Shown piece after piece: positions 8,614-64,000 of a stretch of DNA of 64,000 nucleotides. Position numbers and translations under genes: made by a program. The stretch lies in the IMG/VR virus record IMGVR_UViG_3300037067_027616, positions 96,001 through 160,000 of that record, one strand, 5' to 3'. The notes beneath the pieces were generated by a model. It was given only the letters and a program-made list of their open reading frames with translations, was not told the DNA's origin and did no database searches. The first letter of the stretch is position 1, and the number at the start of each line of letters is the position of its first letter. This DNA comes from a virus. Lineage: Duplodnaviria; Caudoviricetes.

Positions 8614-8901
8614 TTATTTCTGCACGCGCGGCAGAGGGTGTGTGATGATGTTGGCATCCACTATGGATCCTCTTCCGATGATTACTTCGCGATCATCGGG
8701 GTAGGGTTCCACCTCGGAGTAGTCCCCTTTGGACACCGCCTCCGTGAACCGTCCATCGACGGCTATCCACGCGGCCGTTTCGAGGACGATCTCTTTGTCG
8801 TACACCGCCTTCAGCCTGCCGGTGTAATGAAACGTGACGGTACGGATGAAGTAATTCTCACCGACCATGAAGGGGTGTCCCTGCTCTTCCATTTTACCCA
8901 T
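8614..8901 (-). CDS. small beta-rich protein (possibly Sm/SH3-like) heading the peptide array
   Basis: 95 aa, AAAGGA SD; VGENYFIRTVTFHYTGRL..AAWIAVDGRF..EVEPYP..IGRGSIVDA; fold is inferred only. Confidence 0.7.
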   Translation of the reverse strand: MGKMEEQGHPFMVGENYFIRTVTFHYTGRLKAVYDKEIVLETAAWIAVDGRFTEAVSKGDYSEVEPYPDDREVIIGRGSIVDANIITHPLPRVQK

Positions 8902-44119: not shown

Positions 44120-44592
44120 AGGTACTCCTGTTTCGATGGAGGATATGGTTTAGTTATTCGTCCTTGACCACAGGTGTTAGAGGCTTATCGAGCATGACAT
44201 CCACACCATCCCCACGACGCCAGACACGCCCACGATGAACAGAACCCACTCCAGCACGGGTGGAAGGTGGATGTTAGATTCCTCCCCTTGACCAGAGTAC
44301 CATTCTCCCCCGAACCCAAGACCGGTGCCGTAGTTACGCATGGGGTCTCCTTTTTATGGTTTTAGATGTCTGTTTGCGCTTATTGGCTGTTGTAATTTTG
44401 CGTTCCCTGTTTTTCAGGGCGGCGATAACATTTACTGCCGTTCTGTCACACACTTCCCAAGAGGAGGGAGGGTCGACTCTATCATCAAACAAACCGCACA
44501 CACCATTATGAATAACGCTGGATACAAGTTCCGTTTTAGATACCATCGTCGCTCCTATGATATGGCCGCGCAAAGTACAGCACCCATGTTCT

Positions 44593-44832
44593 TTAAACGG
44601 ACAGTTGCCTCAGTTCTTGCAAAACAACATTGAGGATGTTGATAGCCTCGGTAGTGCCTATAAAGCCGATTGCTTTGTGTTCGATTGCGGCTATTTCAGC
44701 CTTTAGTTTTTGTAGATTGTTAAAATTTTCTACCCCGACTTTAGCACAGGGCGGGACTTCATTACCGTACTGTTCATCGCATTTATCAAAAGCCTTACAT
44801 TTATCACACATTTCATTATTAAAATTAGCCAT
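44593..44832 (-). CDS. cassette-type small protein
   Basis: Cys-rich N-terminus; degenerate attC-like 3' end. Confidence 0.6.
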   Translation of the reverse strand: MANFNNEMCDKCKAFDKCDEQYGNEVPPCAKVGVENFNNLQKLKAEIAAIEHKAIGFIGTTEAINILNVVLQELRQLSV

Positions 44833-45155
44833 GTGCCTATAACCCCTTATTGTAAAAGCACGACTGAAGTTTCGTAAAACGCCGCCGTGACGGCCCGCGT
44901 TTTGACTCTCATCGAGCTACTCCTCAATAATGCACACGATGTTGCAGATCGGTATGCGCCACTGTTTGCCGTTTCTTATGAACCCCACCCATTGTCCTGC
45001 CCAGTCTACTTCGGAGCATCCTGTTATGGTAGCGGTGAGCGGTTCGTAGCGACCGATGTTGACCCGATAGGTGATGGTGAAAGTCATGTGTCCTCCGTTT
45101 CTATAAGATGGTATCCGCAAAATTGCGTGCAATGTCCGGGCCATGCGTGCTGAAG

Positions 45156-45377
45156 CTACCTGTTGGCATCACTGGCCTTGTCGTGTGATGGCTCAAACCG
45201 TTCCGTAGTGTCAGTGGCGAGGGGTTCCAAACGGTACACTACGTCTTTATAATTGACGGTTAACACAGAACCTTTTGTTCCACTCACAACAACAACATTG
45301 CCAGGAATTACCATTGCGCAACTCCCCAAAATGAAGCCGATGACAAACATTGCAACAACCCATCCTGAACCATTCAT
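45156..45377 (-). CDS. small membrane protein
   Basis: N-terminal TM helix. Confidence 0.6.
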   Translation of the reverse strand: MNGSGWVVAMFVIGFILGSCAMVIPGNVVVVSGTKGSVLTVNYKDVVYRLEPLATDTTERFEPSHDKASDANR

Positions 45378-45697
45378 AGATCGCCGCCTTTCATATAAAA
45401 ACGTTTTGAATTTTCATAGAACTTCCGGAAAACGGGTACCGTGTTACGTCCCGGAATACTCACCACGACACATTGCACTAACTGAAAAGTACTTGCACAC
45501 CGACCGTTTACTACACGTAGAGCATGGCACCACAGCGTTGTTGTCTGTGTCTTGCGCTTGGACCGGTTTACAGGTGATGGTGTACCCACGGTCAAGTAAC
45601 TGTCGCGCGATATCGTTTGGCATACATCCGCCGACAAAGTACAGGTGTTTGTCACTCACGGTTTCTCCTTCGGCCCGCAGGCCCTGGACATCAAATG

Positions 45698-46147
45698 CTA
45701 CACGGCAAATAATTTGCCCGTCCAAGATGTATCACATCGTCCACATACCAACAAGGTATTTGTAAGTGGTTTAACCCTGCGACTACCACAGTTAGGACAA
45801 ACGGCTGCCTGTAGCTGTTGTTTGACTGTTTGTGGCAACTCAACTTTATTTCTGTCACGTTTTGGATCACCTACCAGGCAATCGGGAATAATCGTTTTCG
45901 ACTTTATCTTTTCTCGATGTGTACGTTTCGGATTGCGCTTGTTGGTGGATGCCACAGCTGCTTCTACATTTTCTTCTGCGGCACGCTTCCTTATTTCGTT
46001 TGTTATAGCATGTTGCCTATCAAGTACATCAGATAGCTGGTTCCGAAAAGATTTCCAATTGGTGTCTCTGCCGTCTCTTTTTGCAATTTGATAGGCAGAT
46101 CGAAGAGAATCGTTACTTTCAAGCAAGAGCTTTTCTACTGTTTTCAT
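45698..46147 (-). CDS. cassette-type protein (possible fusion of decayed cassettes)
   Basis: contains two left-arm-like segments (STNKRNPK, VKQQLQAA). Confidence 0.6.
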   Translation of the reverse strand: MKTVEKLLLESNDSLRSAYQIAKRDGRDTNWKSFRNQLSDVLDRQHAITNEIRKRAAEENVEAAVASTNKRNPKRTHREKIKSKTIIPDCLVGDPKRDRNKVELPQTVKQQLQAAVCPNCGSRRVKPLTNTLLVCGRCDTSWTGKLFAV

Positions 46148-46187
46148 AATCGTGTTTCCTTTCAAAAAATTTTAGGGTTGCGGTTTA

Positions 46188-46317
46188 CACCAACGTCCGC
46201 GCCACCGCACGCCGTTTATGTTTTATCATCGCATGGACACGGCCCATCCGATGAAGGACAAACCTCAGTGTTACACCCAACACCGTTACCTAAATGGCAC
46301 TCATGCGGCTGTTGTAG
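46188..46317 (-). repeat. attC-like site F
   Basis: CTACAAC-A-GCCGCA..TGCCATTTA ... TAAACGGCG-TGCGGT..GGAC-GTTGGTG. Confidence 0.55.
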
Positions 46318-46452
46318 GCTGTTTGAGGAGTCTTCCACAGCTTCCTCAAATTTGACATACCTACCATCAACTGAATCTTCCATAGCTCCATAACCATGAC
46401 CACTCTCGTCACCAGTAACAAGATTATACCTTGTCAAATTTGCTACTGACAT
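46216..46452 (-). CDS. cassette ORF
   Basis: GAGGAGG SD; ends inside site F. Confidence 0.7.
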   Translation of the reverse strand: MSVANLTRYNLVTGDESGHGYGAMEDSVDGRYVKFEEAVEDSSNSLQQPHECHLGNGVGCNTEVCPSSDGPCPCDDKT

Positions 46453-46471
46453 AAAAGCCTCCTCAAATTGA

Positions 46472-46622
46472 CTATAGCGTTTCAGCAATGGTGACGTTGC
46501 CGTGTATCGTAGCAAGACTGACCACCGCGTAAATCACCATGAGCGCAATCAGCAGACTTACACTCGCACATAGAGCATAGCGGCAATGCGGCTTCAGCCC
46601 TAGCACCATTGCTGTGTTGTGG
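46472..46622 (-). repeat. attC-like site E
   Basis: CCACAAC-A-CAGCAATGGTG ... CACCATTGCTG-AAAC-GCTATAG. Confidence 0.75.
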
Positions 46623-46715
46623 GGTGTGTTGCGCTGACTCTTTAGCGTCCTGCGCGGCAGCAATACACTTATTGCAATTTCCATTGTCACAACACTGAAT
46701 GTTACCTGCTGGCAT
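46482..46715 (-). CDS. cassette ORF, Cys-rich
   Basis: stop codon lies in the right arm of site E. Confidence 0.65.
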   Translation of the reverse strand: MPAGNIQCCDNGNCNKCIAAAQDAKESAQHTPQHSNGARAEAALPLCSMCECKSADCAHGDLRGGQSCYDTRQRHHC

Positions 46716-46768
46716 AGTTAACCTTTCATTAAGTCGCGCCTATCTGTAAAGACTCAGCGCAGCATTTA

Positions 46769-46914
46769 CCACAACGTTTCAGGCGTGGCGCTGTTGCACT
46801 ACGAAGGCATCCCATAGCCGCTTTACGTCATCGTACACAGATTCTGGTACTTGGATGGCGAGACACCGAATAGCCTTGTCCATCTCAGCAATGGCGTCCA
46901 TGCCTGTGTTGTTG
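46769..46914 (-). repeat. attC-like site D
   Basis: CAACAAC-A-CAGGCATGGACGC ... GCGCCACGCCTG-AAAC-GTTGTGG. Confidence 0.75.
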
Positions 46915-47051
46915 GCCTGTGAATGCGCTTGGGTCGCAATGTACGCCAACAACTCTTCATCAACACCGCACCCCTGGTACTTCTCGACCGCGCCACGTAT
47001 GAAAGCAACCGCGTCCGTCCCACCGATTGGCTCAACTGTTCCCATCTTCAT
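46779..47051 (-). CDS. cassette ORF
   Basis: GGAGGAAG SD; stop in the right arm of site D. Confidence 0.7.
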   Translation of the reverse strand: MKMGTVEPIGGTDAVAFIRGAVEKYQGCGVDEELLAYIATQAHSQANNTGMDAIAEMDKAIRCLAIQVPESVYDDVKRLWDAFVVQQRHA

Positions 47052-47081
47052 ACTTCCTCCTCGTGGCCCGCAGGCCATTGA

Positions 47082-47232
47082 CGACAACGTTCTGACAAAT
47101 GTGCGCCTACAGATCGCCCCAGTTCATCCAGTCGTCCGTTTCGGCACCGCACACCTCGCACCGATAGACGTTCATTTCGCACCCATGGTAGGCGAACCGC
47201 CACGTGTGCTTGGCGCACTATGTCTGTTGTGC
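47082..47232 (-). repeat. attC-like site C
   Basis: GCACAAC-A-GACATAGTGCGCC ... GGCGCACATTTGTC-AGAAC-GTTGTCG. Confidence 0.75.
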
Positions 47233-47316
47233 GCTGGAAGAGGAGGTGTCCAACCGTGGAACAACACCAACGTTCCCTACCGGCGATAGCTCTTTCGAGA
47301 CGGCAACTTTTTTCAT
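47107..47316 (-). pseudogene. cassette ORF with an internal TAG
   Basis: MKKVAV...AQQT*CAKHTW...CEVCG...WGDL*; TAG at 47218-47220. Confidence 0.55.
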
Positions 47317-47387
47317 GGCCGACCTCCTCTTCTGGCGCAAAACCGTGTGCGGTACGGATGTTGTAACCGCCTATCAAATTCATAACT

Positions 47388-47429
47388 CCATAATGTCCAG
47401 CGGTTATGACATTCCTACCGCTGTTGTAC
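47388..47429 (-). repeat. short attC-like site B
   Basis: GTACAAC-AGCGGT..ACCGCT-GGAC-ATTATGG just after the stop of 47435-47776. Confidence 0.55.
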
Positions 47430-47434
47430 GTAGT

Positions 47435-47776
47435 TTAACCGCGTTCCTTAATGTTCCTCCGGGGCGCTTTTTGTTTTATGACTTTGCCTTTATGTATGAA
47501 ACCATCTGGTTCATTATTCTTATCAACATGTATTATAGCCAACTGAAGCGTATCTTTGTTAATACCGATATGGCCATCCATCTTCCACACATTGAAACTT
47601 ATCATTCCATTTTTGGTTTTTTCATCGTCCAAAACTATAGACAGGTCTCTTTTATTTTTCCGCTGAAGTTGAAGTACCTTTTGACACAAACAAGCTATAA
47701 GACCAAAACGACGCTCCTTTATTAACGATTCCTCAGTCAACTGAAAATCAGCTAATGGTTTAGAAATAGCTTTCAT
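47435..47776 (-). CDS. AT-rich cassette ORF
   Basis: lies between sites A and B; lower GC than the flanking genome. Confidence 0.7.
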   Translation of the reverse strand: MKAISKPLADFQLTEESLIKERRFGLIACLCQKVLQLQRKNKRDLSIVLDDEKTKNGMISFNVWKMDGHIGINKDTLQLAIIHVDKNNEPDGFIHKGKVIKQKAPRRNIKERG

Positions 47777-47827
47777 TCTTTTTCCTTGTCTTGCGCCCCG
47801 GCTATAAATCCCAAACGGTTAAATTTT

Positions 47828-47953
47828 GCACAACGTTTCAACTATTGGTGCCGTGTAACAATATTACAAGCAATACCAGAACACACCTTTCCAGTTTTCC
47901 CACACCAGTTATCCTTACTTATATCGTTGCATGGCACCATAGTTGTGTTGGTG
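47828..47953 (-). repeat. attC-like site A
   Basis: CACCAAC-A-CAACTATGGTGCCATGCAAC ... GTTACACGGCACC(A)ATAGTTG-AAAC-GTTGTGC. Confidence 0.8.
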
Positions 47954-48081
47954 GATGGTTTTTGGCCACCCATCAGCTTGCGAATGTCGGCAACTTCCTT
48001 CGCAAGCGCGTCTATCCTGGTTTCTTGACCAACCACATATTTTTGTAGAAAAGATAGAGTCAGTTTCATTCGCAACTCCAA
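47842..48081 (-). CDS. cassette ORF
   Basis: stop codon in the right arm of site A. Confidence 0.65.
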   Translation of the reverse strand: MELRMKLTLSFLQKYVVGQETRIDALAKEVADIRKLMGGQKPSTNTTMVPCNDISKDNWCGKTGKVCSGIACNIVTRHQ

Positions 48082-48109
48082 TCATAAAAGGCCAAAAACT
48101 TTACACCAA

Positions 48110-48343
48110 CTATACGTATGGTGAAACGCCTTTGTGTAAGACTTTGACTTTTTGGAACTTATGAGTTACCTCATCCAAAGGATACCCATCTGCTTTAAGT
48201 GCCAGGACAACTGCTCTTCGGATATATCTACTCATGGTGCGTACACCTACCTTATGGGCTTGATGAGAACACGCAAAAGCCAACACGGGTTCAAGGTATA
48301 CCCGATAGTCTTTCCGGATTGAGTCAGACATTATAGCTATCAT
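48110..48343 (-). CDS. possible ribbon-helix-helix DNA-binding protein
   Basis: YRVYLEP...TMSRYIRRAV pattern. Confidence 0.45.
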   Translation of the reverse strand: MIAIMSDSIRKDYRVYLEPVLAFACSHQAHKVGVRTMSRYIRRAVVLALKADGYPLDEVTHKFQKVKVLHKGVSPYV

Positions 48344-51745: not shown

Positions 51746-54025
51746 ATGAATAATTTTGTCGATATAGATGGGATAGCAGGCCCCCTGCGTGCCGTGTGGG
51801 TATCTAAAGACTCCCCCGAGGAGGCGGCCAGAAAGAACCCGCTCCTTGTCAATGACAAGCCCACTGTCGAATTCTATGACCTTCGAGGAAAACAGACGCC
51901 AAACGGCACCTATACAGGTGCTTCATATAATGCGGACGAATTATTGGACGTTAAGGGCGGACTTAATCTAAATATTGGCGTAAAGGATTGGAAGGTACCT
52001 CTTGAAAGCATGTCCAATGTAAAAGCGTGGATAAAAGCCAAAAGGGAATCAGAAGGTACTAAAATTGTACAGACCGAGGGTAAAATGGACACAAACGAAA
52101 TGGCTAGGAAGATGGCTGATGAAGGTCTTGTGGCTTCTTTGGCAGAGGCGCGCAGATTTATTGCAGCCGGGGTCGACATAGAGAAGCTTAAAGAAATGCG
52201 CAAAAGGCATTCTGAGCCATTGATGGCACGCCGAGACTACGGTACCAAGCAGGCGGATGATGGCCGTAAAGCCATAGAGGATGAGGCCCGGTCTCTTTTC
52301 AAAGCAAGTGCCTTGAGCTACGGTCGCACGGTCACACCAGAAATAGAGAATAATTTTGACAAATTCCTGGGGACGTGTACTACGAGTCAGATCAAACGGG
52401 CTATCGATGACATCAAAGGTGCGAATGTTGGTGCCACGCCGAGGCAGGCTGATGATGAAGAAGCTGACCCAGAGGTAGTGTTGAAGGCCCTTATGACGGA
52501 GCCTGAGCTGCTTAAGGCGGTCGGGGCTATTGTTGAGGCTGTTAAGAAAAAGGAATGGCTTGCACTTCCTATCGCACAAAGGATATATGGGGATTTGCGC
52601 GAATTGGGGGCCCTCAGGAATTTGGCGGCGGCAGATTCGGATCCGACAAAGATTTTGGAGTCCATAAAAAATGAGCCGGACTTCAACGAGACAGTGATGC
52701 GTTTGATGAATGAACATTTGGTGAAGAACCTCAGCGAGGCTCGCAGGCTCGCGGCGGCGGGTGTGACCCCCGAATTCTTGCGTCATATACGAGGAGAGCG
52801 TCCTATGGATCCAAAGGCCTTGAAAGAGAGAAGTTCTTACGTGGTCAAACAGCTTGATGTACTTGCTGATCGACTCGAGGCTTATGGATTGCGTGAGGCA
52901 TCGGAGAAGTTGGATATCATCTCGAACACGATTGAAGCGACGGACGGAAAACCAGATTTGAAGGACGATCTTTCCGTGAAATTCTGGGAAAAATATGGAG
53001 AACAAATCACAAAAATCTTTAGTAGAACATACGCTGTTATTAACGTTGATTCTGTAATTTCTTTAGAGTCACTTAAAAACTATTTCGTTCTTGTTTTTTC
53101 TTCTGGTGATATGCTTCTTAGTCAGCTAACAGAACTATCAAAAGTTCTACAAGATCCATCCATAAAGATAGCTTCAAAAGGGAGTAAATTGGCGCTTACG
53201 GTGGAGGTTCATGACATCGATAAAGTTGTCACACCGAAAGATGCCGCCGCACTCGCCAACAAGCCTTATGTGGTCGAGCAATTGGAAAAGGTTGGATTCG
53301 AGGTATCACAGTATCCAGGCAGCGAAGAGTATCTCAAAGAATTATGGAAGAACAAGGATCCGATACAGCACCATTCAGTGCATGCCTGGTTGGTGTCACC
53401 TCCTGCGGACAGGGTATTTAACGTGGAAGGCATCGAACAAGAAAACGTGATATTGGTTACTCCGGGATCGGCGGAGAAGGAGCAGGAGGGGTATTTCACC
53501 GGAGAATCTCCCGATGATTACAAGTACCTAGTTATGAAGGCCTCTAAACCTTACAAAGGTATCGAATCGGAAGATATCATCGTTTCATCCAACAGGGAAC
53601 AGGATTTAATATCCAAACTGAAGAGGCTGCTAAAACCTGAAGGAATCGCAAAGTTGGCCACCAAATATTTGAGGGATACACCCACCAATGAGGTGCATGA
53701 ATTTTTGAAGAAAGCCGGCGAAAGTGTAAGTTTCCCGATCCATTTTTCGGATAATCCCGAACACCCTGAATTGAAAAGGGTGTTCACGTGGCTCACCAGG
53801 CACAAGATGGGGCCTGCGTTTGGCAGCCGACCTATAGGTTGGTATCAGCAGCACCAAATGGCCGCCATAGATATCATAGAGGAAGCTGTAAAAAAGGCCG
53901 TGGGCACCGGCGAGGTGCGTGTTGAGAAGGGTGATTTGATGGTGACCACAAACGGGCGCGATTGGGAAAGACTGATGAGTTGTGAAGAGGTTTACAAGAA
54001 AGCTGACGCGGCAGCCAGAAAATAA
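51746..54025 (+). CDS. large multi-module protein, possibly virion-associated
   Basis: 759 aa, GGAG SD; internal repeat LVxxLxEARRxxAAGV twice. Confidence 0.8.
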   Translation: MNNFVDIDGIAGPLRAVWVSKDSPEEAARKNPLLVNDKPTVEFYDLRGKQTPNGTYTGASYNADELLDVKGGLNLNIGVKDWKVPLESMSNVKAWIKAKRESEGTKIVQTEGKMDTNEMARKMADEGLVASLAEARRFIAAGVDIEKLKEMRKRHSEPLMARRDYGTKQADDGRKAIEDEARSLFKASALSYGRTVTPEIENNFDKFLGTCTTSQIKRAIDDIKGANVGATPRQADDEEADPEVVLKALMTEPELLKAVGAIVEAVKKKEWLALPIAQRIYGDLRELGALRNLAAADSDPTKILESIKNEPDFNETVMRLMNEHLVKNLSEARRLAAAGVTPEFLRHIRGERPMDPKALKERSSYVVKQLDVLADRLEAYGLREASEKLDIISNTIEATDGKPDLKDDLSVKFWEKYGEQITKIFSRTYAVINVDSVISLESLKNYFVLVFSSGDMLLSQLTELSKVLQDPSIKIASKGSKLALTVEVHDIDKVVTPKDAAALANKPYVVEQLEKVGFEVSQYPGSEEYLKELWKNKDPIQHHSVHAWLVSPPADRVFNVEGIEQENVILVTPGSAEKEQEGYFTGESPDDYKYLVMKASKPYKGIESEDIIVSSNREQDLISKLKRLLKPEGIAKLATKYLRDTPTNEVHEFLKKAGESVSFPIHFSDNPEHPELKRVFTWLTRHKMGPAFGSRPIGWYQQHQMAAIDIIEEAVKKAVGTGEVRVEKGDLMVTTNGRDWERLMSCEEVYKKADAAARK

Positions 54026-55034: not shown

Positions 55035-57590
55035 ATGGCATTTCTATCTCTCCACGCGATACACGGCGTCATCGATTCTTTCCTGCACAATACCCAATAT
55101 ATGTTCAGGACAGCCAAAGAGGCTCCGGATATTGATGATGCTTATGAAGATGCAAAAAAAGAGGTCAACAAAGCCGGAATAAATTACGACAGGAATATAG
55201 GAAGGGCCTTCGGGCAACTTCTTACGCAGGCGATAGATCTTCCTGAAGATCCTTCGAAGTCTACTTTTTGGGGAGATGAGGACGTCGTAGATCTTTTGAA
55301 CAAGCTACCCTACCTCATACCGCATTGGACAGGTGAAGCTTTCGGTAAGGCTTTCGCCAAGAAGCTTAACCGATCGATGGGATCTTACGTCTACAAGTTA
55401 TTTGGTCGCTCGGATGAGGACTACAAAAAGCCAAAAACCATTGCGTGGTTTGAGTCCGGGGATCTTAACCCACAAGAAATTTTTAAAAGATTTGCTGTCA
55501 TACTCAACAAAGAGTCAAAGAAAAATTATACCCCCGAAACGGTACGAGAAAATTTCAAGTATGAAAAAAAAGAAAAGCCGTCCTATGATGACTACGATTT
55601 GAGAACAAATTCCACGGTGACAGCACAAAAAGCCCTTGAGTCAACAGTATCCATGTTGAGTGATGAACTTATAAATCCAAGCAACTTTATTAACAAGTTG
55701 GCAGAGCAAAGAGGTGGTAAAGAGGTTGCCGTGTCGTGGATGCGCCCACCACGAGGTAAAGCACCCTCCGCCAAAGAACAAACAGAAGAAACCGATCGCC
55801 GCAAGATGGACCCCGAAGTGGCAGATAAAATGTTCGAGGCCTTGGAATCGAAGCGACCGTTACACTGGAAATATGTCCGGCCGGAAGTTGCCCCTGGAAA
55901 AGGGGGTGCTGCCGTTACCATGTTGACTGTCTTTTTCCCGGCTCTTGGTGATAAAGAGTACAGCATTGTAGTACCCAATGACGTTGGATTAGCTCTTCGT
56001 GACTCACGTAAGGGTGAAGAGTATACGTTGCGCGTACTTGATTATGACCCGTCCAAAGGGTTCAAAGTTTCTTTCGACGGGTTCAAAGACAAGATACTTC
56101 TTTCAAGAAGAGAATCCATAAGGAAAACAGGTGTAACGGCCAAGCAGCTCTCTGACGCCATCAGGGATTTTATAGATGACTATGCTTCAGAACTTGTAAA
56201 ACCCACAATCTCTGAAGATGTTACAAAAGTAGCCGAACAGTTCTTTGGAAGAGTCATAGTCGATGGAAAGAACGTGGCGACTGATCAAGGCCTTTCTGAA
56301 TTGATTGACCTCCACGAACAACGTAAGATCCAAAGGGACCCCCGTGGAGGCAAGAAAAAAGATCCCGAAGACCAAAGCGAAGAGTCTGTGCTGAAAAGGT
56401 ACCTTAAAGAAAAAGAAGAACTCGAAAATAAACGCAAAGTGCAAGAAGAAGGCGTAGGCGAGGACATCGCATGGGTGCAACACCAAAGGATGGATCACGC
56501 AAATAAGGCGGCCTCAAAAATAGCCGACAAGATATCACGATCTCCATCGATACCCGAAAAAGGGCGCTTCACGCATAAAAGTGATACATGGACATATGCC
56601 AATGCTTTGAGAAGTAAAGCCGGGATAAGGTGGCTGGTCGAACTCGCAACATCAGAGGCGTTGCTTCCGACAAAAACAGGGAAAATACCGTGGGACACGT
56701 TAATAAATAACATCATGAAGTCCGACATTATCGGGAACGCCGAAAAATCGGTGTTGTTAGGCGGGAGTTCGATAGAAAAGATTCTACCAGCATTAAAAGT
56801 CGCCTATATCGCCCATAATGCGTCCATGTCAGATGACCAAAAAAGAAGTGCCTATGAGGAATACATGAAAGGCACTTTAAAAGTAAACCCTACCGAGCGT
56901 TCCGAGATATCCAAAGACTTGGCATCAAAGGAAGTTGACTACATCAGGACCAACATCGTTGACAACGTCAAAGAGGAGATACAAAGGGCTTTTATAAACA
57001 TGTACGCTGCGGGTGATCCGGACATTGTAGATATCGTAGAGGTTTCAAAAGCGCGCCTCCCGGAACGTATGACGGAAGAGGAGAAAGAGGAGTGGGACAT
57101 CGACAAGAAAAAGAAAAAGGTGACCACGACTTTCAAAACTAGAATCGATGAGGCCCGTGAAAGAATAAAGAACATAAGGGACTTCAATAGTCAAAAAGCC
57201 CGCGCCTTGGAAGACATTTTGGAAAACGGAGATTATGGAAAGGTACGTAAGGATCTTAAAGCTGTCAAAATGTCCCCCAAAGCCTTGGAAACATTCGAAG
57301 AACTTGAAAAATCTGGAAAAGCCACCCCGGACACTGCGGAATACGAAGGGATGCTCTCCAAAATAGAAACTGTTTCCGATGCCTACGAAAGAGCCTTGAA
57401 CGATGAGTCTGATAAGAGCCTTGAGAAGGTATTCAAGTCTGTTGCAACGAAGCAGAAAGGTAAAGAGGATACTTCGGGGGTAACAGAAAAACCAGAAGAT
57501 ACCTCGGAGGAAACAGAAGAACTTGAGGATAAACAGGCATCGTTGAACAGACTTGCTGTTAAAATTGCCTTTTCTAAAATGGGTTTGTAA
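55035..57590 (+). CDS. large Lys/Glu-rich protein, possibly virion/head-internal
   Basis: 851 aa ORF with SD. Confidence 0.8.
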   Translation: MAFLSLHAIHGVIDSFLHNTQYMFRTAKEAPDIDDAYEDAKKEVNKAGINYDRNIGRAFGQLLTQAIDLPEDPSKSTFWGDEDVVDLLNKLPYLIPHWTGEAFGKAFAKKLNRSMGSYVYKLFGRSDEDYKKPKTIAWFESGDLNPQEIFKRFAVILNKESKKNYTPETVRENFKYEKKEKPSYDDYDLRTNSTVTAQKALESTVSMLSDELINPSNFINKLAEQRGGKEVAVSWMRPPRGKAPSAKEQTEETDRRKMDPEVADKMFEALESKRPLHWKYVRPEVAPGKGGAAVTMLTVFFPALGDKEYSIVVPNDVGLALRDSRKGEEYTLRVLDYDPSKGFKVSFDGFKDKILLSRRESIRKTGVTAKQLSDAIRDFIDDYASELVKPTISEDVTKVAEQFFGRVIVDGKNVATDQGLSELIDLHEQRKIQRDPRGGKKKDPEDQSEESVLKRYLKEKEELENKRKVQEEGVGEDIAWVQHQRMDHANKAASKIADKISRSPSIPEKGRFTHKSDTWTYANALRSKAGIRWLVELATSEALLPTKTGKIPWDTLINNIMKSDIIGNAEKSVLLGGSSIEKILPALKVAYIAHNASMSDDQKRSAYEEYMKGTLKVNPTERSEISKDLASKEVDYIRTNIVDNVKEEIQRAFINMYAAGDPDIVDIVEVSKARLPERMTEEEKEEWDIDKKKKKVTTTFKTRIDEARERIKNIRDFNSQKARALEDILENGDYGKVRKDLKAVKMSPKALETFEELEKSGKATPDTAEYEGMLSKIETVSDAYERALNDESDKSLEKVFKSVATKQKGKEDTSGVTEKPEDTSEETEELEDKQASLNRLAVKIAFSKMGL

Positions 57591-57624: not shown

Positions 57625-60600
57625 ATGGCTATTATGACCAACAAACTCGGCGTAGAACTTATGAATAAACTGGTAGGGTTGACGACCAGCGATGTCTATG
57701 ATCCAAAACGCGACCGAAAGTTGTTCGGTGACTTCACGGATGAACTCGTTAGGGAAATTTCTGGCGCGACTTATGCCCCTGAAGTTGTGGGTGTTATAGA
57801 GGAAACTGCCAAGAACGCCCAACAGGACGAATCTGCTGAATTCAGCAAAATGACCCACCAAAACAAAATAAAAGAATTGATTCGCGTATTGCATTGGGCA
57901 GAAGACACGACAGACCTTACACTTGGTCAAGCACCACAGGTATCTGCCCGAATACTTAAATCTATATACATACCGGATGTGTCCCACGTGAAAACGGATA
58001 CGAATGCTCCGGAGTTGGTTAATGCAGGTCCTCTTACAGAAGCCGAACTCAGTTTTTTCGAGAACGCCCCTGCATCGGCCACTATGTCAGAATACAACGA
58101 AGAACGCAACAAGCGTACCCCCACCAAAGATACCCTGCCGGAAACGTACGATCCGCTTACTTGGAATGACATAGGCAAAGACGCAGACGTGCAAAAGGTA
58201 ATCAACGCCGTGAGGTTCTTCCTTGGAAACCGCGAAGTCAAGGATGGAAAAAAGACCTATTCAAGGCGTGTGAAGGAACCACCCCTCAAGAGGTATCTCG
58301 CCGATTTGGCAACAGATGAGGCTGAAAATGAAGGCGAATCAAAAAAAGGCGGTACGGAAAGCGCCCAAAAAGTAAAAGACTTGATATTCAGGTTGCTTGG
58401 CCACGTGCGCGATGAGAAATACAAAGCTTGGGATGAAGCGCGCCGCAAGATGGTCGAACAACAACACGCTATCAATCCAGAACCTCTCAGTCCTGTCGAA
58501 AAAACCCACGCCATGTTCTATGGTGAAAACCACGGTAAAGACAGCGATGCCGCTAAAACTCTTGGAAGAACGAAGGCGCAACTCAAGCACGCAGTGGATA
58601 ATATCTTCAACAAAAGCGTTACTAAGTCCGGGGACATCCTTGGCGACCACAAAGTTGTGGCAATCAACGCAGGCGCCTTGAACGCTTCTATAAAAGCCTT
58701 CAAAAGATATCTCCAAGAAATGGGAAAAGAACGAAAAAGCAAAGATGACAGTGGCAAGGATATTGCCGTCCCAACAAACTTGCAAACGGATTTGAAGAGC
58801 CTGAAGAACTTCATAAACACCGGGGCTCACAAACCGGACATGCAAACATATAAGGATTTGCTCGGGCAACTTAATGGTGCTATTTCTGACGCCAACCTCA
58901 CCGAGGATCAAAGGGATTCTCTTTATGGGATATTCCCCAGTGCCTCCGGCGAAGAACGGTCGATGAAAACGGTGAATGACTGGATCTCCGGATTAGAAGA
59001 ACGCTCTGGATCTGCTAAAAAGAGGTCAAAGGAAATCGAAGATAAAATAAAGTTGCCTGAAGAAGATCGTGGGTCTTTGAAGAACATGATCGAACTTGCC
59101 AATAATAAAAGGTCAGAAGCTTACGAAGCTTATAGGAAGGCCCATACCCTCTCCGAGGATCTTGCCCCGAAGATCTTGAGAGATCTGCGGTCTCCGTTTC
59201 TCGTGCGCGGTGCGGATTTGTCTAACAAGGAAATTGAAGAATTGGCCGATCGCGTGTACAAGGTTACTTTGGAAAAATATGCTCCCAGGTACGGTGAGGA
59301 GAATGTAAAACGAGTTTTTGATTATGCTAAAAAGTACATGTTGGCTAAACATGAAGAGGAATCAACGTTGGAGGACATCAAATCTTCAAAAGATGGTGAA
59401 CTTTTGTATAACCTTGATACAGCCAAGAAAAACGAAGAAAACACTAAAAGACTTCTTGACGGCGCATTGTCACTCGTTGTGGAGAAAAGCACACCAGGAG
59501 ATAAAAATAAGTCGTATGACTTCTCGAACGATTCTTTGAAAGATATTCACAAAAAAGCTGACGGCCTTGTGAATTGGGTGTTCAATACAAGGGACGAGAG
59601 CATCAAATCAGCAAATTTCAAGGGTGTGAGAGATTTGATCCAAAAGCTTGATGACATACGAAAGAAGCTCGTCAAACTTTCGAGGACCTCCAAAGCAGCA
59701 ATGTTTTGGGACTATGGAACCGGTTGGATGTATCGGGACAAAGATGCAAAAACTCCCGCAGCATTCGGAGAGGGTAAATTTGACGAAGGAGCGTTGCTTT
59801 CTGATGACCCGGAAAAATGGATATCTGATTTACAAAATGACAGCAGGCTGAATTTTCTTGAAACGAAAACAGATGAACTATTTAAAGCCGGAAAAGGAAA
59901 GCCAGAAACAGTTGCTGGTCCGAGCTTCTCTCAAATACCCGTTATTTACAACCACATTGTTCGATTGATATCAAAATTGAAAAATTTCGACCCAAATGCG
60001 GTGAAGGACAAAATGATAAACGAGGCTATTTCGAGGGCCAACATTGGATACACTATTCGTTCGAAAGAAACCCAGAAGAAGAAAAAAACCGAAGAGAAGG
60101 AACGTCAGAAAGCCTACGAATCAGAAAACATAAAGCCCATTGAAATGGTTAAAGCAGAACCTGCGGCTCAACCACAACCCGAAGCCACGCCAAAAAGCGC
60201 TTCAAGTTTGTCCCAACTTGTAGTAGCGTTCATGGACAGGGTGGCCGCTATGCGCGAGGCCACATTTGATTTCTTGAGTCGCACCGCGAAGGGAAGAAAA
60301 ATACGTCCCGAGATACTCCCCGCCCATACGAAGCGCGAGAAGAAAACCGGCCCTGTGTACCTCAACGCATTTTTCATCGACCCCGATGGTGCCGATGAAT
60401 TCATACTTGAATTGGAAAGAAACGGTTTTGACTTCGTGAACTCGTTGGCCATGGAGGATGAAGCCCTATCGGGTAAAACCCCGAAGGAACTTGAGGAAAA
60501 GATGCCCGGTCCGGAGAAAAAGCCGGAACAGGCACAACCAGCCCGGGGTCACAAATTCGATATAGACGAAGCCATAGTAAAGACGATGATGAAAGGATCT

Positions 60601-63600
60601 TCGAGAATTCAAGAGCATATCTTGAAAAACAAAGATCGCATGGCGGATGTGCTTGGCAAACGTCTTAAAAACGTAGATGACCAGATGAAAGATGCGAAGA
60701 GAATGGTCGATGTCTACACTGCTGAGGTGGCAAACACCGAATTAAGAAACAAATTGAGCTTTTTGAAAGAACTTGCCTCATTCATACGGAATCCGGAGAA
60801 GGTAATAAAAGACTACGTACCTTTGGCGTTCCCTGAAAAAGCATGGAGCATGAGGCAACGTGAATTAAAGAACCAACAAAAGGATGTCGAGAAAATAATA
60901 GAAAAGGTCAAGCGTCGTAAAGAATTTGACCTCCGTCGCAATAAATTGAAAGCTAAATACGAAAGCATGGGGATCGACCCCGAAACGCGTGATGACTATC
61001 GTTATGCTGACAAGGTAGTTAAGCAAGTCGATAATTTGAAGAAGTTCATGTCTTTGAGCGAGTTGTATGAAATGTACGAAGACTTGCCGGAGTACGACAA
61101 GATAAACAGGCAGATACGGGGCATACGCAGTCGGGCAAATAAAAAAGGCCAGATGACTGATGCTGAATCGGATGAATTGTACGCCTTGGAGCAACGGGTA
61201 AGCAGACTTGATGCGTATTTGTCCAAAAAGGAAAGCTTCAAAAATATTCAGAAGCTTTATCCTGCAGAATCTGCACAATATACGGATCCCGAAACCGAAG
61301 CCTTGTACAAAAAACAGGTGAAAGACGTTCCTGAAGATGTCAAATCCGAGAAGCGTTATCAGTACGAGCAGAGGATGAAGGAGTTAGATGACCTGTCATC
61401 ATGGGATGAATTCAAGTCGTGGATAAGGAAGATACAGAAGGCGAAGCCCTCATCAGAAACAACATCAAAAGTATCCTTGGAGATTACTAGACAAAAGGCT
61501 TTGATAGAATCTCTGAAGAAAAGAATATCCAAGGCGGAAGGGGAAGCAAAATCTTTAAAGGGTGAAGATGCCACGAAGGCGAAGGCTCTCATCGATGATT
61601 TGAAGAAAAATCTTACCTCTGCGGAATCGAGCCTCTCCCAAGATGAGAAGAAGTTAGTAACCATGACTTCCCGCAAAAAAGGTCTTGGGGACACCCAATT
61701 TGGGAAAACGGAACCCAAAGAATTGGTTCGTTTAAGGAAAGAAGTTGCCGATGCCGAGGAACAACTGAAGAACGCCCCCGAAAACGAACGTGAAAACGCT
61801 AAAACTCGTCTTGAAGGACTAAAAGGTAAATTGACATCTGCAGAGGAAGATTTCAAAAAAACAAAAGCTTTGCGTGAAAAAGGGGTAAGTGACATAGGCC
61901 TTGGAGAATACGAGCCCAAAGAAGGTCGCAGATTGTGGGACAGATTCATGGACAATGTTAAAAATATCGTTGTCTTGGGAATGAAGAAAGATAGATATCC
62001 TAAGATGCTATTTGATTTGGCTAACGAAAACGTACTTTCGTACGTGGCGCCAGACGAATTCTTAAAAACGGTAAGCGATATGGAAAGACGCCTTTCGGAA
62101 GCTGGTGTAAAAAAATATTTGGTTCTCAAAAATTTGTTCGGATCCGAAGGCGATTGGAACACGATGAAGTCCTCCATAGAAAAACGCTTGGATTCGCTGA
62201 AAACCAATGCCGAAGACAAGAAGAAGGTGTTGGGGGAGGCCAGGAAGAAGCTGGAGGAACTCAAAAAAAGCACACCGGTGGAACCTGGAGAAGACGAACA
62301 AAATGTAGTGACAGAAGCCGAGTCCGATGTGAAAGGCCTTGAGAACGACATATCCTATACACTTGAAAACGAAAAAGCTTTACGCGGATTGATGGAAGAA
62401 ATAGACTCCATGTACTCCAAGCAGAAGGAATTGAGCAAAGCCTCTGAACCCGGGCTATCAAAAAATATCAATGAGGTGTTGTCGAAACCGCTACCGAAGC
62501 CCACAATGACAGATGCTGAAATGAAACAGACGGTCGAACAGTATGTGAAATCCAAAAACAGGCAAAAAATAATTGACTTCGTATTGGATGTGGACAATGC
62601 CAACAAGCCCATACAGAACGAATTGGAAATCTTGAAGAACACAAAATCTTCTGTGGACAAACTCTATGGGGACAGTCCAGAACGACAGGAAATGTATCGC
62701 AAGGTTGATGACAGAAAGAAAGAATTGTCTGAACTCCTTGTCAGTGACCCTCGAGAGTATTATGTCAACAAGGTTGTCGAGGGCTTCAAATCCCGTATGA
62801 AGGAAATGAGTCCCGAGCAGGAGAGCAAAATAAGAAAAGAACTCACGGAACATTTGGAAAAGAAAATCCCGGGTTCAAGGTGGAAAGCATACGAAGAAGA
62901 AGAGAAAAAGAAGGAAACTTCGGGATTAAAACCAAAAATGGTCATTGAAAAATACCTTCAATTATACCCCCTGTCATTCGGCGGTGAATCGGCCATAAGA
63001 GCTGTCGCCAAAAGTACCGTTGATTCCTTAAGTAAAAAGGCAGACGGCACCACGGATTCCCTAGGATTCAAAGAACTCGTGCGGGATGCTAAAAAATACG
63101 AATCCACTGCGCTCCAATTGGGAGACAGTTTCAAAAAATTTGTTGTAATAGGAACTACACAGGTTGTTATTAGATCTTTAGAGGATGTCGACAAGATGGA
63201 AAATCGATTTGTAAATTCTCTCTCTACGGTAAATGCCTATATCGATTTTGCCAACGAAACGCGTGCTGTGGTTGACTCCGCAGCGAATAAACTTGAAGCA
63301 TCCATTCCTAAAGACACACAAGAATGGAAGAAAAGTTCTGCCGAGGGCGTTAAGAAATTGGAGGAAATGAAGAAAGAAATAGATGACTTTTGGTCAGAGA
63401 TTAAAAAAGATATACTTGAATACAGAAAAAACAAAAATTTAAAACTAAACCTTGGCAAGGCCCAGCCTTTGAAGCCGGAAGAATCAGATCCGTTTTGGAG
63501 CACTCGGACACGCTACGAGGACATGCCAAAAGCACAAAAAGGAGTACCCGGACGCACAAAGCGCAAGACAGATTACCCGCTCCAAAAGGATACTGACCCC

Positions 63601-64000
63601 GAGTGGGGAAAACCTGCGCCGGTAGACGAATCAATCCCCGAAGCGGTAATGTCTAAAACCGCCTCTGAAGATGATGATGGTATCGACAAGAGCAACATCG
63701 AAAATTGGCTAAAATCGTCACCTCGCAAATATCTTGAAGATTTGTCACGCATAGGTATAAATGACTGGGATCTCATCGAGAGCCTTTATGGCGAGAAGAA
63801 GGCAGAGTACCGTGACCTCGTGCGTGGCAACCAGATGATAATCGATGGGCCGGAGGCTAAAGAACGCGTCAAGAAAATGATGGAGGAAGTAGATCGCAAA
63901 GCGAAGGAGTTGGCACGCATCGAATCTTTGAAAGACATGAGGATTCCGATCGGGGGACAGATGGTGAAGGTGTCCGATGTCGGCGATGTGTTCAACAGGG
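57625..64000 (+). CDS. giant Lys/Glu-rich protein (>2120 aa, 3' end outside window)
   Basis: ATG at 57625 after AGGGG SD; frame appears open to the window end (spot-checked); missing from the ORF track because it has no stop. Confidence 0.85.
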   Translation, partial: MAIMTNKLGVELMNKLVGLTTSDVYDPKRDRKLFGDFTDELVREISGATYAPEVVGVIEETAKNAQQDESAEFSKMTHQNKIKELIRVLHWAEDTTDLTLGQAPQVSARILKSIYIPDVSHVKTDTNAPELVNAGPLTEAELSFFENAPASATMSEYNEERNKRTPTKDTLPETYDPLTWNDIGKDADVQKVINAVRFFLGNREVKDGKKTYSRRVKEPPLKRYLADLATDEAENEGESKKGGTESAQKVKDLIFRLLGHVRDEKYKAWDEARRKMVEQQHAINPEPLSPVEKTHAMFYGENHGKDSDAAKTLGRTKAQLKHAVDNIFNKSVTKSGDILGDHKVVAINAGALNASIKAFKRYLQEMGKERKSKDDSGKDIAVPTNLQTDLKSLKNFINTGAHKPDMQTYKDLLGQLNGAISDANLTEDQRDSLYGIFPSASGEERSMKTVNDWISGLEERSGSAKKRSKEIEDKIKLPEEDRGSLKNMIELANNKRSEAYEAYRKAHTLSEDLAPKILRDLRSPFLVRGADLSNKEIEELADRVYKVTLEKYAPRYGEENVKRVFDYAKKYMLAKHEEESTLEDIKSSKDGELLYNLDTAKKNEENTKRLLDGALSLVVEKSTPGDKNKSYDFSNDSLKDIHKKADGLVNWVFNTRDESIKSANFKGVRDLIQKLDDIRKKLVKLSRTSKAAMFWDYGTGWMYRDKDAKTPAAFGEGKFDEGALLSDDPEKWISDLQNDSRLNFLETKTDELFKAGKGKPETVAGPSFSQIPVIYNHIVRLISKLKNFDPNAVKDKMINEAISRANIGYTIRSKETQKKKKTEEKERQKAYESENIKPIEMVKAEPAAQPQPEATPKSASSLSQLVVAFMDRVAAMREATFDFLSRTAKGRKIRPEILPAHTKREKKTGPVYLNAFFIDPDGADEFILELERNGFDFVNSLAMEDEALSGKTPKELEEKMPGPEKKPEQAQPARGHKFDIDEAIVKTMMKGSSRIQEHILKNKDRMADVLGKRLKNVDDQMKDAKRMVDVYTAEVANTELRNKLSFLKELASFIRNPEKVIKDYVPLAFPEKAWSMRQRELKNQQKDVEKIIEKVKRRKEFDLRRNKLKAKYESMGIDPETRDDYRYADKVVKQVDNLKKFMSLSELYEMYEDLPEYDKINRQIRGIRSRANKKGQMTDAESDELYALEQRVSRLDAYLSKKESFKNIQKLYPAESAQYTDPETEALYKKQVKDVPEDVKSEKRYQYEQRMKELDDLSSWDEFKSWIRKIQKAKPSSETTSKVSLEITRQKALIESLKKRISKAEGEAKSLKGEDATKAKALIDDLKKNLTSAESSLSQDEKKLVTMTSRKKGLGDTQFGKTEPKELVRLRKEVADAEEQLKNAPENERENAKTRLEGLKGKLTSAEEDFKKTKALREKGVSDIGLGEYEPKEGRRLWDRFMDNVKNIVVLGMKKDRYPKMLFDLANENVLSYVAPDEFLKTVSDMERRLSEAGVKKYLVLKNLFGSEGDWNTMKSSIEKRLDSLKTNAEDKKKVLGEARKKLEELKKSTPVEPGEDEQNVVTEAESDVKGLENDISYTLENEKALRGLMEEIDSMYSKQKELSKASEPGLSKNINEVLSKPLPKPTMTDAEMKQTVEQYVKSKNRQKIIDFVLDVDNANKPIQNELEILKNTKSSVDKLYGDSPERQEMYRKVDDRKKELSELLVSDPREYYVNKVVEGFKSRMKEMSPEQESKIRKELTEHLEKKIPGSRWKAYEEEEKKKETSGLKPKMVIEKYLQLYPLSFGGESAIRAVAKSTVDSLSKKADGTTDSLGFKELVRDAKKYESTALQLGDSFKKFVVIGTTQVVIRSLEDVDKMENRFVNSLSTVNAYIDFANETRAVVDSAANKLEASIPKDTQEWKKSSAEGVKKLEEMKKEIDDFWSEIKKDILEYRKNKNLKLNLGKAQPLKPEESDPFWSTRTRYEDMPKAQKGVPGRTKRKTDYPLQKDTDPEWGKPAPVDESIPEAVMSKTASEDDDGIDKSNIENWLKSSPRKYLEDLSRIGINDWDLIESLYGEKKAEYRDLVRGNQMIIDGPEAKERVKKMMEEVDRKAKELARIESLKDMRIPIGGQMVKVSDVGDVFNR

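Follow-up and report, generated by a model that had tools for sequence, protein, structure and literature searches.

We analysed a window of 64,000 nucleotides of viral DNA (bases 96001-160000 of IMG/VR record IMGVR_UViG_3300037067_027616, a virus record of 466,729 bp that is 98% complete by CheckV) and identified within it a run of small minus-strand open reading frames (ORFs), at 44.3-48.3 kb of the window, which is probably a series of gene cassettes, each bounded by attC-like recombination sites, that belongs to an integron-like system of phages. The small ORFs of this run gave no convincing Pfam or PHROGs match. The site family and its covariation, cassette-wise pairing, the positions at which homology breaks off, linkage to a recombinase gene and array turnover are established, and they support the initial annotation of the window, which had read the run as a phage-borne integron-like array with non-canonical attC-type sites; recombination itself we infer from this comparative evidence.

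On the minus strand the units follow a common syntax, in which GTTGnnnn precedes the 5′ untranslated region (5′ UTR), the start codon and the N-terminal coding sequence, followed by nnnnCAAC, a single A, an arm, a loop and the return arm, RAAC and the GTTGnnnn of the next unit. All six palindromic sites (A-F) of the initial annotation were found at their minus-strand coordinates with the 7-nt boxes assigned to them, and the core matches it had counted between the start and the end of the same cassette (7/7, 7/7, 6/7, 6/7, 5/7 and 4/7) were correct throughout. When the duplex energy of the arms was compared with 300 arm shuffles per site, the shuffles equalling the real site numbered 0 for A, 0 for C, 2 for E, 6 for D, 12 for B and 29 for F. 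The concern that shuffled controls might reveal the palindromes as chance products was thereby removed for four of the six sites (A, C, D and E), which are clearly non-random, and not for B, which is short, or F, which is weak. Each site had also been said to close one small ORF; the sites do delimit the units, but the ORFs run through them, the hairpin loop encoding the C-terminal part of the protein.

The same family of sites was found in other phages. The 20-nt 5′ arm of one hairpin module, 'LKAEIAA...RQLS' (...LQQLKAEIAA...RQLSAV*), which has two copies in a second array of the 467-kb genome and one decayed copy in gene K of the window, has exact matches in 20 IMG/VR contigs, 8-219 kb in length. 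There the two arms are near-identical in nucleotides, the ~100-nt loop is hypervariable but without exception an open reading frame, and the module is followed by RRAC-GTTGnnnn(C/A)AAT. A complete 213-kb phage contains ~17-25 consecutive sites of the same layout with differing arms and spans of 47-150 nt. The carrier genomes are unrelated (G+C 32-50%), and an all-against-all BLAST of five of them returned as common proteins only cassette proteins, one uracil-DNA glycosylase and one epimerase, which led us to reject a phage-encoded enzyme common to these five. An alignment of 24 sites had 94.6% of its cells paired, compared with 19-45% when the partners were slid, and nine pairs were changed on both sides; none of 500 shuffles reached the observed values. 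Conserved over 101 sites were ACAnCnnnCAAC-A on the left and AAAC-GTTGTnnGCAAT on the right, together with an A-rich internal loop and a single-base bulge, and the spans clustered around 125 nt with a second, short class. Across the family the stems covary and the bulge and A-rich internal loop are fixed, and the pattern of substitution indicates that the structure of the site is under selection. Amino acids of the 'LKAEIAA...RQLS' module co-vary with the pairing, for example A to S alongside Q to K, and change together so that the pairing of the arms is kept.

The initial annotation had further claimed that complementarity is cassette-wise, and this was upheld by counts and by covariation of the boxes. 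Over 56 consecutive site pairs pooled from several contigs, the six bases after GTTG were complementary to the six before the next CAAC at 3.73/6 positions, compared with 2.11/6 for the box of the site to which they belong and a chance level of 1.5. In the window by itself the figures were 14/21 variable positions cassette-wise and 7/18 within sites, the excess becoming clear only after related contigs were pooled. Box positions 5-9 are Watson-Crick paired in 54-74% of the pairs, the helix resuming past a conserved 2-nt mismatch, and in one cassette present in five contexts the start and end boxes covary (TAG/CTA, TAC/GTA and CAC/GTG). Such a pattern would be expected if circularisation of a cassette completed a two-box site over the junction.

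The 7-bp match between the start and end of a unit described initially is genuine but forms part of a much longer pairing. A repeat search found that the start of four units pairs over 21-29 nt with the stretch just 5′ of its own CAAC box (48090-48110 with 47947-47967 in cassette A, 47322-47343 with 47226-47247 in cassette C, 46747-46775 with 46616-46644 in cassette E and 46455-46474 with 46315-46334 in cassette F), such closing, or outer, stems ranging up to 20-29 nt. Minimum-free-energy folds place two adjacent domains per gene, one outer and one inner, closed at those stems. Long-range inverted repeats (14/16 matches, loop of at least 30 nt) numbered 42 genome-wide, compared with 9-24 in ten local shuffles, and peaked at six in one 4-kb bin, 76-80 kb, where the shuffle maximum was 2.

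These pairings bear on a reading of the hairpins as selfish palindromic mini-elements, similar to miniature inverted-repeat transposable elements (MITEs) or Rickettsia palindromic elements, that insert in frame at the 3′ ends of genes and accumulate in arrays. The hairpin modules are indeed translated in frame, and one module with nucleotide-conserved ends terminates many unrelated ORFs of unrelated phages. The flanks of a single hairpin are however neither complementary nor duplicated beyond CAAC/GTTG (2.11/6 against 1.5), each flank pairing instead with the next unit; the arms differ among sites, leaving no common ends for a transposase, and the carriers have no transposase in common. Neither the common terminal repeats nor the target duplication or complementary target that mark a MITE were found, and we consider this origin very improbable.

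In other phages the sites are linked to a tyrosine recombinase gene. Such a gene lies directly upstream of the array and on the same strand in a 47.6-kb record, and at six loci a gene for a 266-293-aa Xer-like tyrosine recombinase is followed by same-strand sites. The 268-aa Xer-like recombinase of the 47.6-kb record (G004 gene; L035:16528-17334) matches the XerA, integron-integrase and XerC/D models, all below their curated cut-offs; the integron-integrase model TIGR02249 scored 125 bits against a cut-off of 265 bits, with the match split in two stretches. Its closest solved relatives are XerA (4a8e, E 6e-29) and IntI4 (2a3v, E 4e-19, again in two stretches). Homologues of this recombinase were present on four contigs at 45-57% identity and on one at 83%, all with signature sites 0.1-1.2 kb downstream, while the contig of one further homologue ends at the recombinase gene; these relatives came from the protein database, a single-protein search of IMG/VR having returned the query alone. 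The distinct recombinase family suspected in the initial annotation thus has a counterpart at the six loci, where the linked enzyme is Xer-like and not IntI. Catalysis by this enzyme is what we infer, as are the strand used, the exact position of crossover and any activity in the genome studied here.

A hairpin-less site, GTTGnnnn(C/G/A)AAT, also written GTTGnnnnCAAT, lies 6-50 nt past the stop codon of the recombinase gene in five of the six loci, for which we estimate a chance of ~0.002 per locus; it was not seen after the stop codon at the sixth, L057. By analogy with integrons this site would be the equivalent of attI. On one contig (L055:2980-3125) the recombinase gene overlaps at its 3′ end with the first hairpin site, as if the ORF reads into the site.

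The 467-kb genome itself encodes no tyrosine recombinase (PF00589), Y1 transposase, serine recombinase or homologue of the linked enzyme, so that the lack of a visible integrase remarked on in the initial annotation extends to the whole genome. As no such enzyme is encoded, the arrays of this phage are orphans, lacking a cis-encoded enzyme.

Comparison of contigs located the positions at which homology between arrays breaks off. Blocks of 100-300 nt shared between unrelated contigs at 70-78% identity end at CAAC|A and RAAC|GTTG, CAAC|A having 51% of block ends within 15 nt of it and RAAC|GTTG 29%, against a chance of ~2%. Two contigs with unrelated flanks have one whole cassette in common. The second array contains a copy, at 75% identity, of the N-terminal module of cassette F, fused there to a different C-terminal module; the N-terminal module also recurs in contig L020, again with a different C-terminal module. 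Contigs L042 and L043 are 99.8% identical for 2.46 kb and begin to diverge inside a site. Homology crosses the two junction types about equally often (5 vs 4), and the N- and C-terminal halves of genes therefore assort separately. Crossover had initially been placed at G/TT only; breaks at RAAC|GTTG are indeed present, but so are breaks at CAAC|A.

Turnover of whole arrays, the result on which the initial annotation had made its reading depend, was seen in related phages. The flanks of L051 and L057 are 76-81% identical, one comprising DUF2800, a single-stranded DNA-binding protein and the recombinase and the other DNA polymerase A, and yet the arrays between them, of 3.2 kb and 2.6 kb and full of sites, have no detectable sequence in common. 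A third relative has yet another set of gene sizes. For the 467-kb genome, megablast and blastn searches of isolate phages gave zero nucleotide matches, and IMG/VR queried with two flanking proteins and the array-head sequence returned no close relatives.

Breaks of this kind could also arise if the hairpins were regulatory or boundary elements of a polycistronic early mRNA, serving as 3′ stabilisers, in translational coupling or as processing signals, with homologous or microhomology recombination breaking there in the manner of promoter early stem-loops (PeSLs) and no dedicated recombinase. Conserved sequence blocks would likewise produce breaks at both junctions, the units of an array share one orientation behind a single promoter-like head without internal terminators, most array-bearing genomes have no recombinase, and PeSLs provide a documented precedent (PMC2839356, PMC4122927). 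Several outer stems moreover cover the Shine-Dalgarno sequence, pairing it with an anti-Shine-Dalgarno stretch ~100 nt inside the gene. We nevertheless consider such an origin unlikely. It leaves unexplained the tight linkage to a recombinase gene with a hairpin-less box and the total replacement of arrays between conserved flanks, and an 8-bp stem enclosing 150-300 nt of translated RNA would be a weak RNA element. A.C mismatches, which cannot pair in sense RNA, exceed G.U in the boxes (21 vs 11, with one conserved A.C present in 32 of 54), in the aligned stems (12 vs 5) and, more weakly, in all stems (262 vs 213), and the opposite strand folds better at 78 sites compared with 41. In both arrays the -10 of the promoter-like head overlaps the first box, which would for that reason be untranscribed. 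Per-unit promoters or T-runs were absent, with 6 promoter-like sequences against 7.0 expected and 3 terminator-like against 3.9 expected, and the head alone has a promoter- or terminator-like site at a unit boundary. No curated covariance model of Rfam 15 matched either array at E values up to 1. Because of the A.C bias, the untranscribed first box, the lack of per-unit promoters or T-runs and the lack of an Rfam match we read the sites as DNA elements, although the outer stems that cover the Shine-Dalgarno sequence may have an added role at the RNA level.

The likeness to PeSLs, found in T4-type phages, is that conserved structured motifs border the small accessory ORFs of hyperplastic regions and coincide with the breakpoints of modular shuffling (PMC2839356, PMC4122927). 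A PeSL is however a promoter with a terminator-like stem-loop of conserved sequence that acts through homologous recombination (PMC2839356, PMC4122927), whereas the units described here have no promoter or T-run of their own, their arms are variable and covary, their boxes pair cassette-wise and the sites are linked to a recombinase. An early promoter with a terminator-like stem-loop at each boundary was accordingly not found. Hammerhead-like ribozymes, RNase III sites, N4-type hairpin promoters, variable regions of diversity-generating retroelements, retron-like inverted repeats and IS200/IS605 ends were each rejected, their defining motifs or enzymes being absent.

A further possibility is that the sites are divergent but genuine integron attC sites recombined by a host-encoded IntI, the arrays being ordinary clusters of attC sites lacking an integrase (CALINs) that exchange cassettes with bacterial integrons. 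Canonical attC clusters of this type, recombined by IntI1, were reported from phages in 2023 (Qi et al. 2023, PMC9892861), and the sites share with attC their AAC/GTT outer boxes, their variable sequence and length (36 to ~150 nt), conserved unpaired bases and co-oriented small ORFs. We think this quite improbable, as only YAAC/GTTR is kept of the RYYYAAC/GTTRRRY cores and the spacers are 1 and 4 nt in place of ~5 and 5, with the extra bases on the opposite arm relative to the ORF. Classical attC requires extrahelical bases on one arm, two of them on the 3′ arm of the bottom strand (PMC3053210, PMC8876359); here the extra bases, both the bulge and the longer side of the internal loop, all lie on the 3′ arm of the coding strand, the mirror of the canonical arrangement (PMC3053210). 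The non-canonical spacer asymmetry remarked on in the initial annotation was confirmed at 1 nt vs 4 nt. The linked enzyme also differs, being Xer-like, 266-293 aa long and under the integron-integrase cut-offs, with a split match to IntI4 (2a3v). Finally, the exact arm occurs in just three contigs of metagenome-assembled genomes (MAGs) of different phyla, none of which has the return arm.

Measured against classical integrons, cassette-wise complementarity is present, whereas a gene beside the array for an IntI with its IntI-specific extra segment is not, nor are canonical attC sites with their cores, L boxes and spacers; an attI platform with a hypervariable array was seen in related phages, while here two arrays share a 50-nt head. 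Common to the phage arrays and to integrons or CALINs are small ORFs that share one orientation, mostly lack promoters and each end in an imperfect palindrome of conserved structure but variable sequence and length, AAC/GTT outer boxes, conserved unpaired bases and a unit start complementary to the box before its own hairpin. In other phages a hypervariable array lies beside a tyrosine recombinase gene and a hairpin-less entry site, as in integrons, and orphan arrays occur in both. In layout the array of the window resembles a CALIN, having six to seven sites and no integrase. The phage system differs from integrons in that the gene for the linked Xer-like enzyme (266-293 aa, below the IntI cut-offs) is co-oriented with and directly upstream of the array, box pairing extends over 8 bp at the least and 29 nt at the most, the extra bases have a mirrored polarity with spacers of 1 and 4 nt, ORFs pass through the hairpin loop, homology also breaks at CAAC|A and the carriers are phages, some of them huge.

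Several observations weigh against an integron-like system. Outer stems of 20-29 nt over the Shine-Dalgarno sequence in cassettes C and F suggest an additional function in the RNA. As to the recombining strand, the wobble bias mildly favours the non-coding strand and the arm that carries the extra bases the coding strand. Homology breaks off at CAAC|A as often as at RAAC|GTTG, which the single G|TT crossover of classical integrons does not predict. No case of a single cassette present in one array and missing from its counterpart was observed. A tyrosine recombinase was found in only 2 of 18 array-bearing records, most of them fragments, and the complete 213-kb phage, which has the largest array, is also without a tyrosine, serine or Y1 recombinase. 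Stems so well kept in genomes that lack the enzyme imply that the sites work in trans or have a second role.

We favour the integron-like system on balance. Each site is an imperfect palindrome that consists of nnnnCAAC, one base, a three-helix stem with a conserved bulge and an A-rich internal loop, a variable loop of ~10-110 nt, the return arm, RAAC and GTTGnnnn. In an excised circular cassette the GTTGnnnn of the start would pair with the nnnnCAAC before the hairpin, so that folded single-stranded DNA would carry a complete two-box site, as it does in integron attC. In classical integrons it is the folded bottom strand that recombines, and the crossover point in GTTRRRY separates G from TT (PMC8876359, PMC3053210). 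The phage enzyme would be a small (~266-293 aa) Xer-like tyrosine recombinase with entry at the hairpin-less GTTGnnnnCAAT as attI equivalent, and the orphan arrays of the 467-kb genome could undergo rearrangement solely through an enzyme supplied in trans, for instance from the host or from a co-infecting phage. Breaks at CAAC|A would re-assort N- and C-terminal modules alongside whole genes. We also put forward, as a tentative elaboration, that the hairpin is itself coding, its loop being a swappable ~35-aa C-terminal peptide with crossovers on both sides; this would amount to a domain-level integron served by an Xer-like enzyme in trans, with a pool shared by unrelated phages of ~45-467 kb.

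Parts of this mechanism have parallels elsewhere. At the attP of CTX-phi, XerCD likewise acts, as an Xer-type recombinase, on a site formed by folded single-stranded DNA, although CTX-phi has one integration site per phage genome, of dif-like sequence, and no cassette arrays. The shufflons of IncI plasmids, with Rci and sfx repeats, resemble the arrays in that a tyrosine recombinase swaps alternative C-terminal coding segments; they differ in that inversion takes place between identical 19-bp repeats in one gene, whereas here the hairpins have differing arms and modules move between genes and genomes. Rickettsia palindromic elements are palindromic DNA translated in frame within host proteins, as the hairpins are, but are dispersed repeats of conserved sequence inside genes, not arrayed junctions, and have no box pairing with a neighbour.

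Integrons are regarded as a bacterial invention with one specialised integrase, and the arrays point to a parallel system in phages that differs in three respects: its small Xer-like recombinase, its differently built folded site and the position of some sites within coding sequence, where recombination could re-assort protein domains. A description of such a phage system, with an Xer-like enzyme and coding hairpin sites, was not found in the literature. The site family joins phages that share almost nothing else (32-50% G+C, 45-467 kb), implying a common pool of small accessory genes which probably serve host take-over or anti-defence. Such a system would explain in concrete terms how the mosaic 'ORFan' regions of phages arise, and its compact pair of recombinase and site would be a potential tool. 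A cassette-sized gene of a related array (L043:2950-3228) matches Pfam Tad8 (PF25189), which suggests that the cassettes include anti-defence genes.

The window array, on the minus strand throughout, begins with a head (48103..48152), a block of 50 nt that shares 98% identity with its counterpart in the second array, the identity stopping at the first GTTGGTG. The head carries the promoter-like TACACA-18-TATAGT and terminates in this first, hairpin-less GTTGGTG box (48104-48110), which is complementary 7/7 to the CACCAAC of site A; it is a candidate attI-like entry site. Cassette A (47828..48110) contains a gene at 47842-48069 (75 aa) and ends in site A (47828-47953; CACCAAC-A-arms-AAAC-GTTGTGC), the loop of which encodes a Cys-rich C-terminus. 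Cassette B (47388..47834; gene 47435-47776, 113 aa) ends in site B (47388-47429), a short 7-bp hairpin with boxes GTACAAC/ATTATGG in which a degenerate ATT replaces GTT. Cassette C (47082..47394) ends in site C (47082-47232; boxes GCACAAC/GTTGTCG) and has an outer stem that covers the Shine-Dalgarno sequence GAGGAGG; its coding content can be read in two ways, as one 111-aa ORF (47048-47383) or as a pair of mini-ORFs (47218-47316 and 47107-47175). Cassette D (46769..47088) has a gene at 46779-47051 (90 aa, counted from an inner ATG) and site D (46769-46914; boxes CAACAAC/GTTGTGG). Cassette E (46472..46775; gene 46482-46715, 77 aa), with an outer stem of 29 nt, ends in site E (46472-46622; boxes CCACAAC/GCTATAG), which has a perfect inner stem of 11 bp and GCT in place of GTT. 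Cassette F (46188..46478; gene 46216-46452, 78 aa), the outer stem of which also covers the Shine-Dalgarno sequence, ends in the weak site F (46188-46317; boxes CTACAAC/GTTGGTG).

The regular syntax fades in unit G (45698..46194), which has a gene for a 149-aa protein with a C-terminal zinc ribbon (45698-46147) and a box CACCAAC (45941-45947) complementary 7/7 to the GTTGGTG of site F, with no clear hairpin seen after the box. Further small co-oriented ORFs on the same strand (45444-45659, 45156-45377, 44917-45144, gene K at 44593-44832, and 44334-44546) form part of 44334..45659. The decayed copy of the 'LKAEIAA...RQLS' module lies at the 3′ end of gene K (44591..44715), with the junction CTACAAAAA instead of CTACAACAG and no GTTG after it; apart from this module no sites were recognisable across 44334..45659, and these ORFs may represent either cassettes that have decayed or ordinary small genes. 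Decay is partial in units B, F, G and K.

The second array, located through the inverted-repeat peak at 76-80 kb, lies 65 kb upstream in the same genome and has the same syntax (L001:5386-8800, genome 75,386-78,800, minus strand). It has ~10 units, is better preserved than the window array and in its first three genes has strictly alternating outer and inner hairpins with 1-6 nt between them. A stricter scan for the elements found only these two arrays in the whole genome; a third, hinted at near 411 kb by three inverted repeats, was not borne out. A small hairpin, GGCC-TGCG-GGCC, recurs just 5′ of the Shine-Dalgarno sequence in three cassettes across both arrays as a 5′ UTR element (window 47064-47075 and 45674-45685; L001 ~8765-8776).

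The exact 20-nt arm was also matched, among GTDB genomes, in three MAG contigs (L045, L046 and L047, from Porticoccaceae, Marinilabiliaceae and Bdellovibrionales); these gave no indication of a host, and are either unrelated coding matches or remnants. A 436-nt insertion with a 92-aa ORF distinguishes L042 (2258-2693) from L043 (336-340). It was considered as a cassette event and rejected, since it is flanked by GAGG and lies off the cassette junctions, just downstream of a tRNA gene, and it represents a different kind of mobile unit. Three very large plus-strand ORFs occupy 57625-63999 (>2125 aa), 55035-57590 (851 aa) and 51746-54025 (759 aa) of the window, and none of the three had a Pfam or PHROG match. 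G+C content falls near position ~42000 of the window from ~0.55-0.58 to ~0.44-0.48 and stays low through the window end; the arrays are situated in the low-G+C part.

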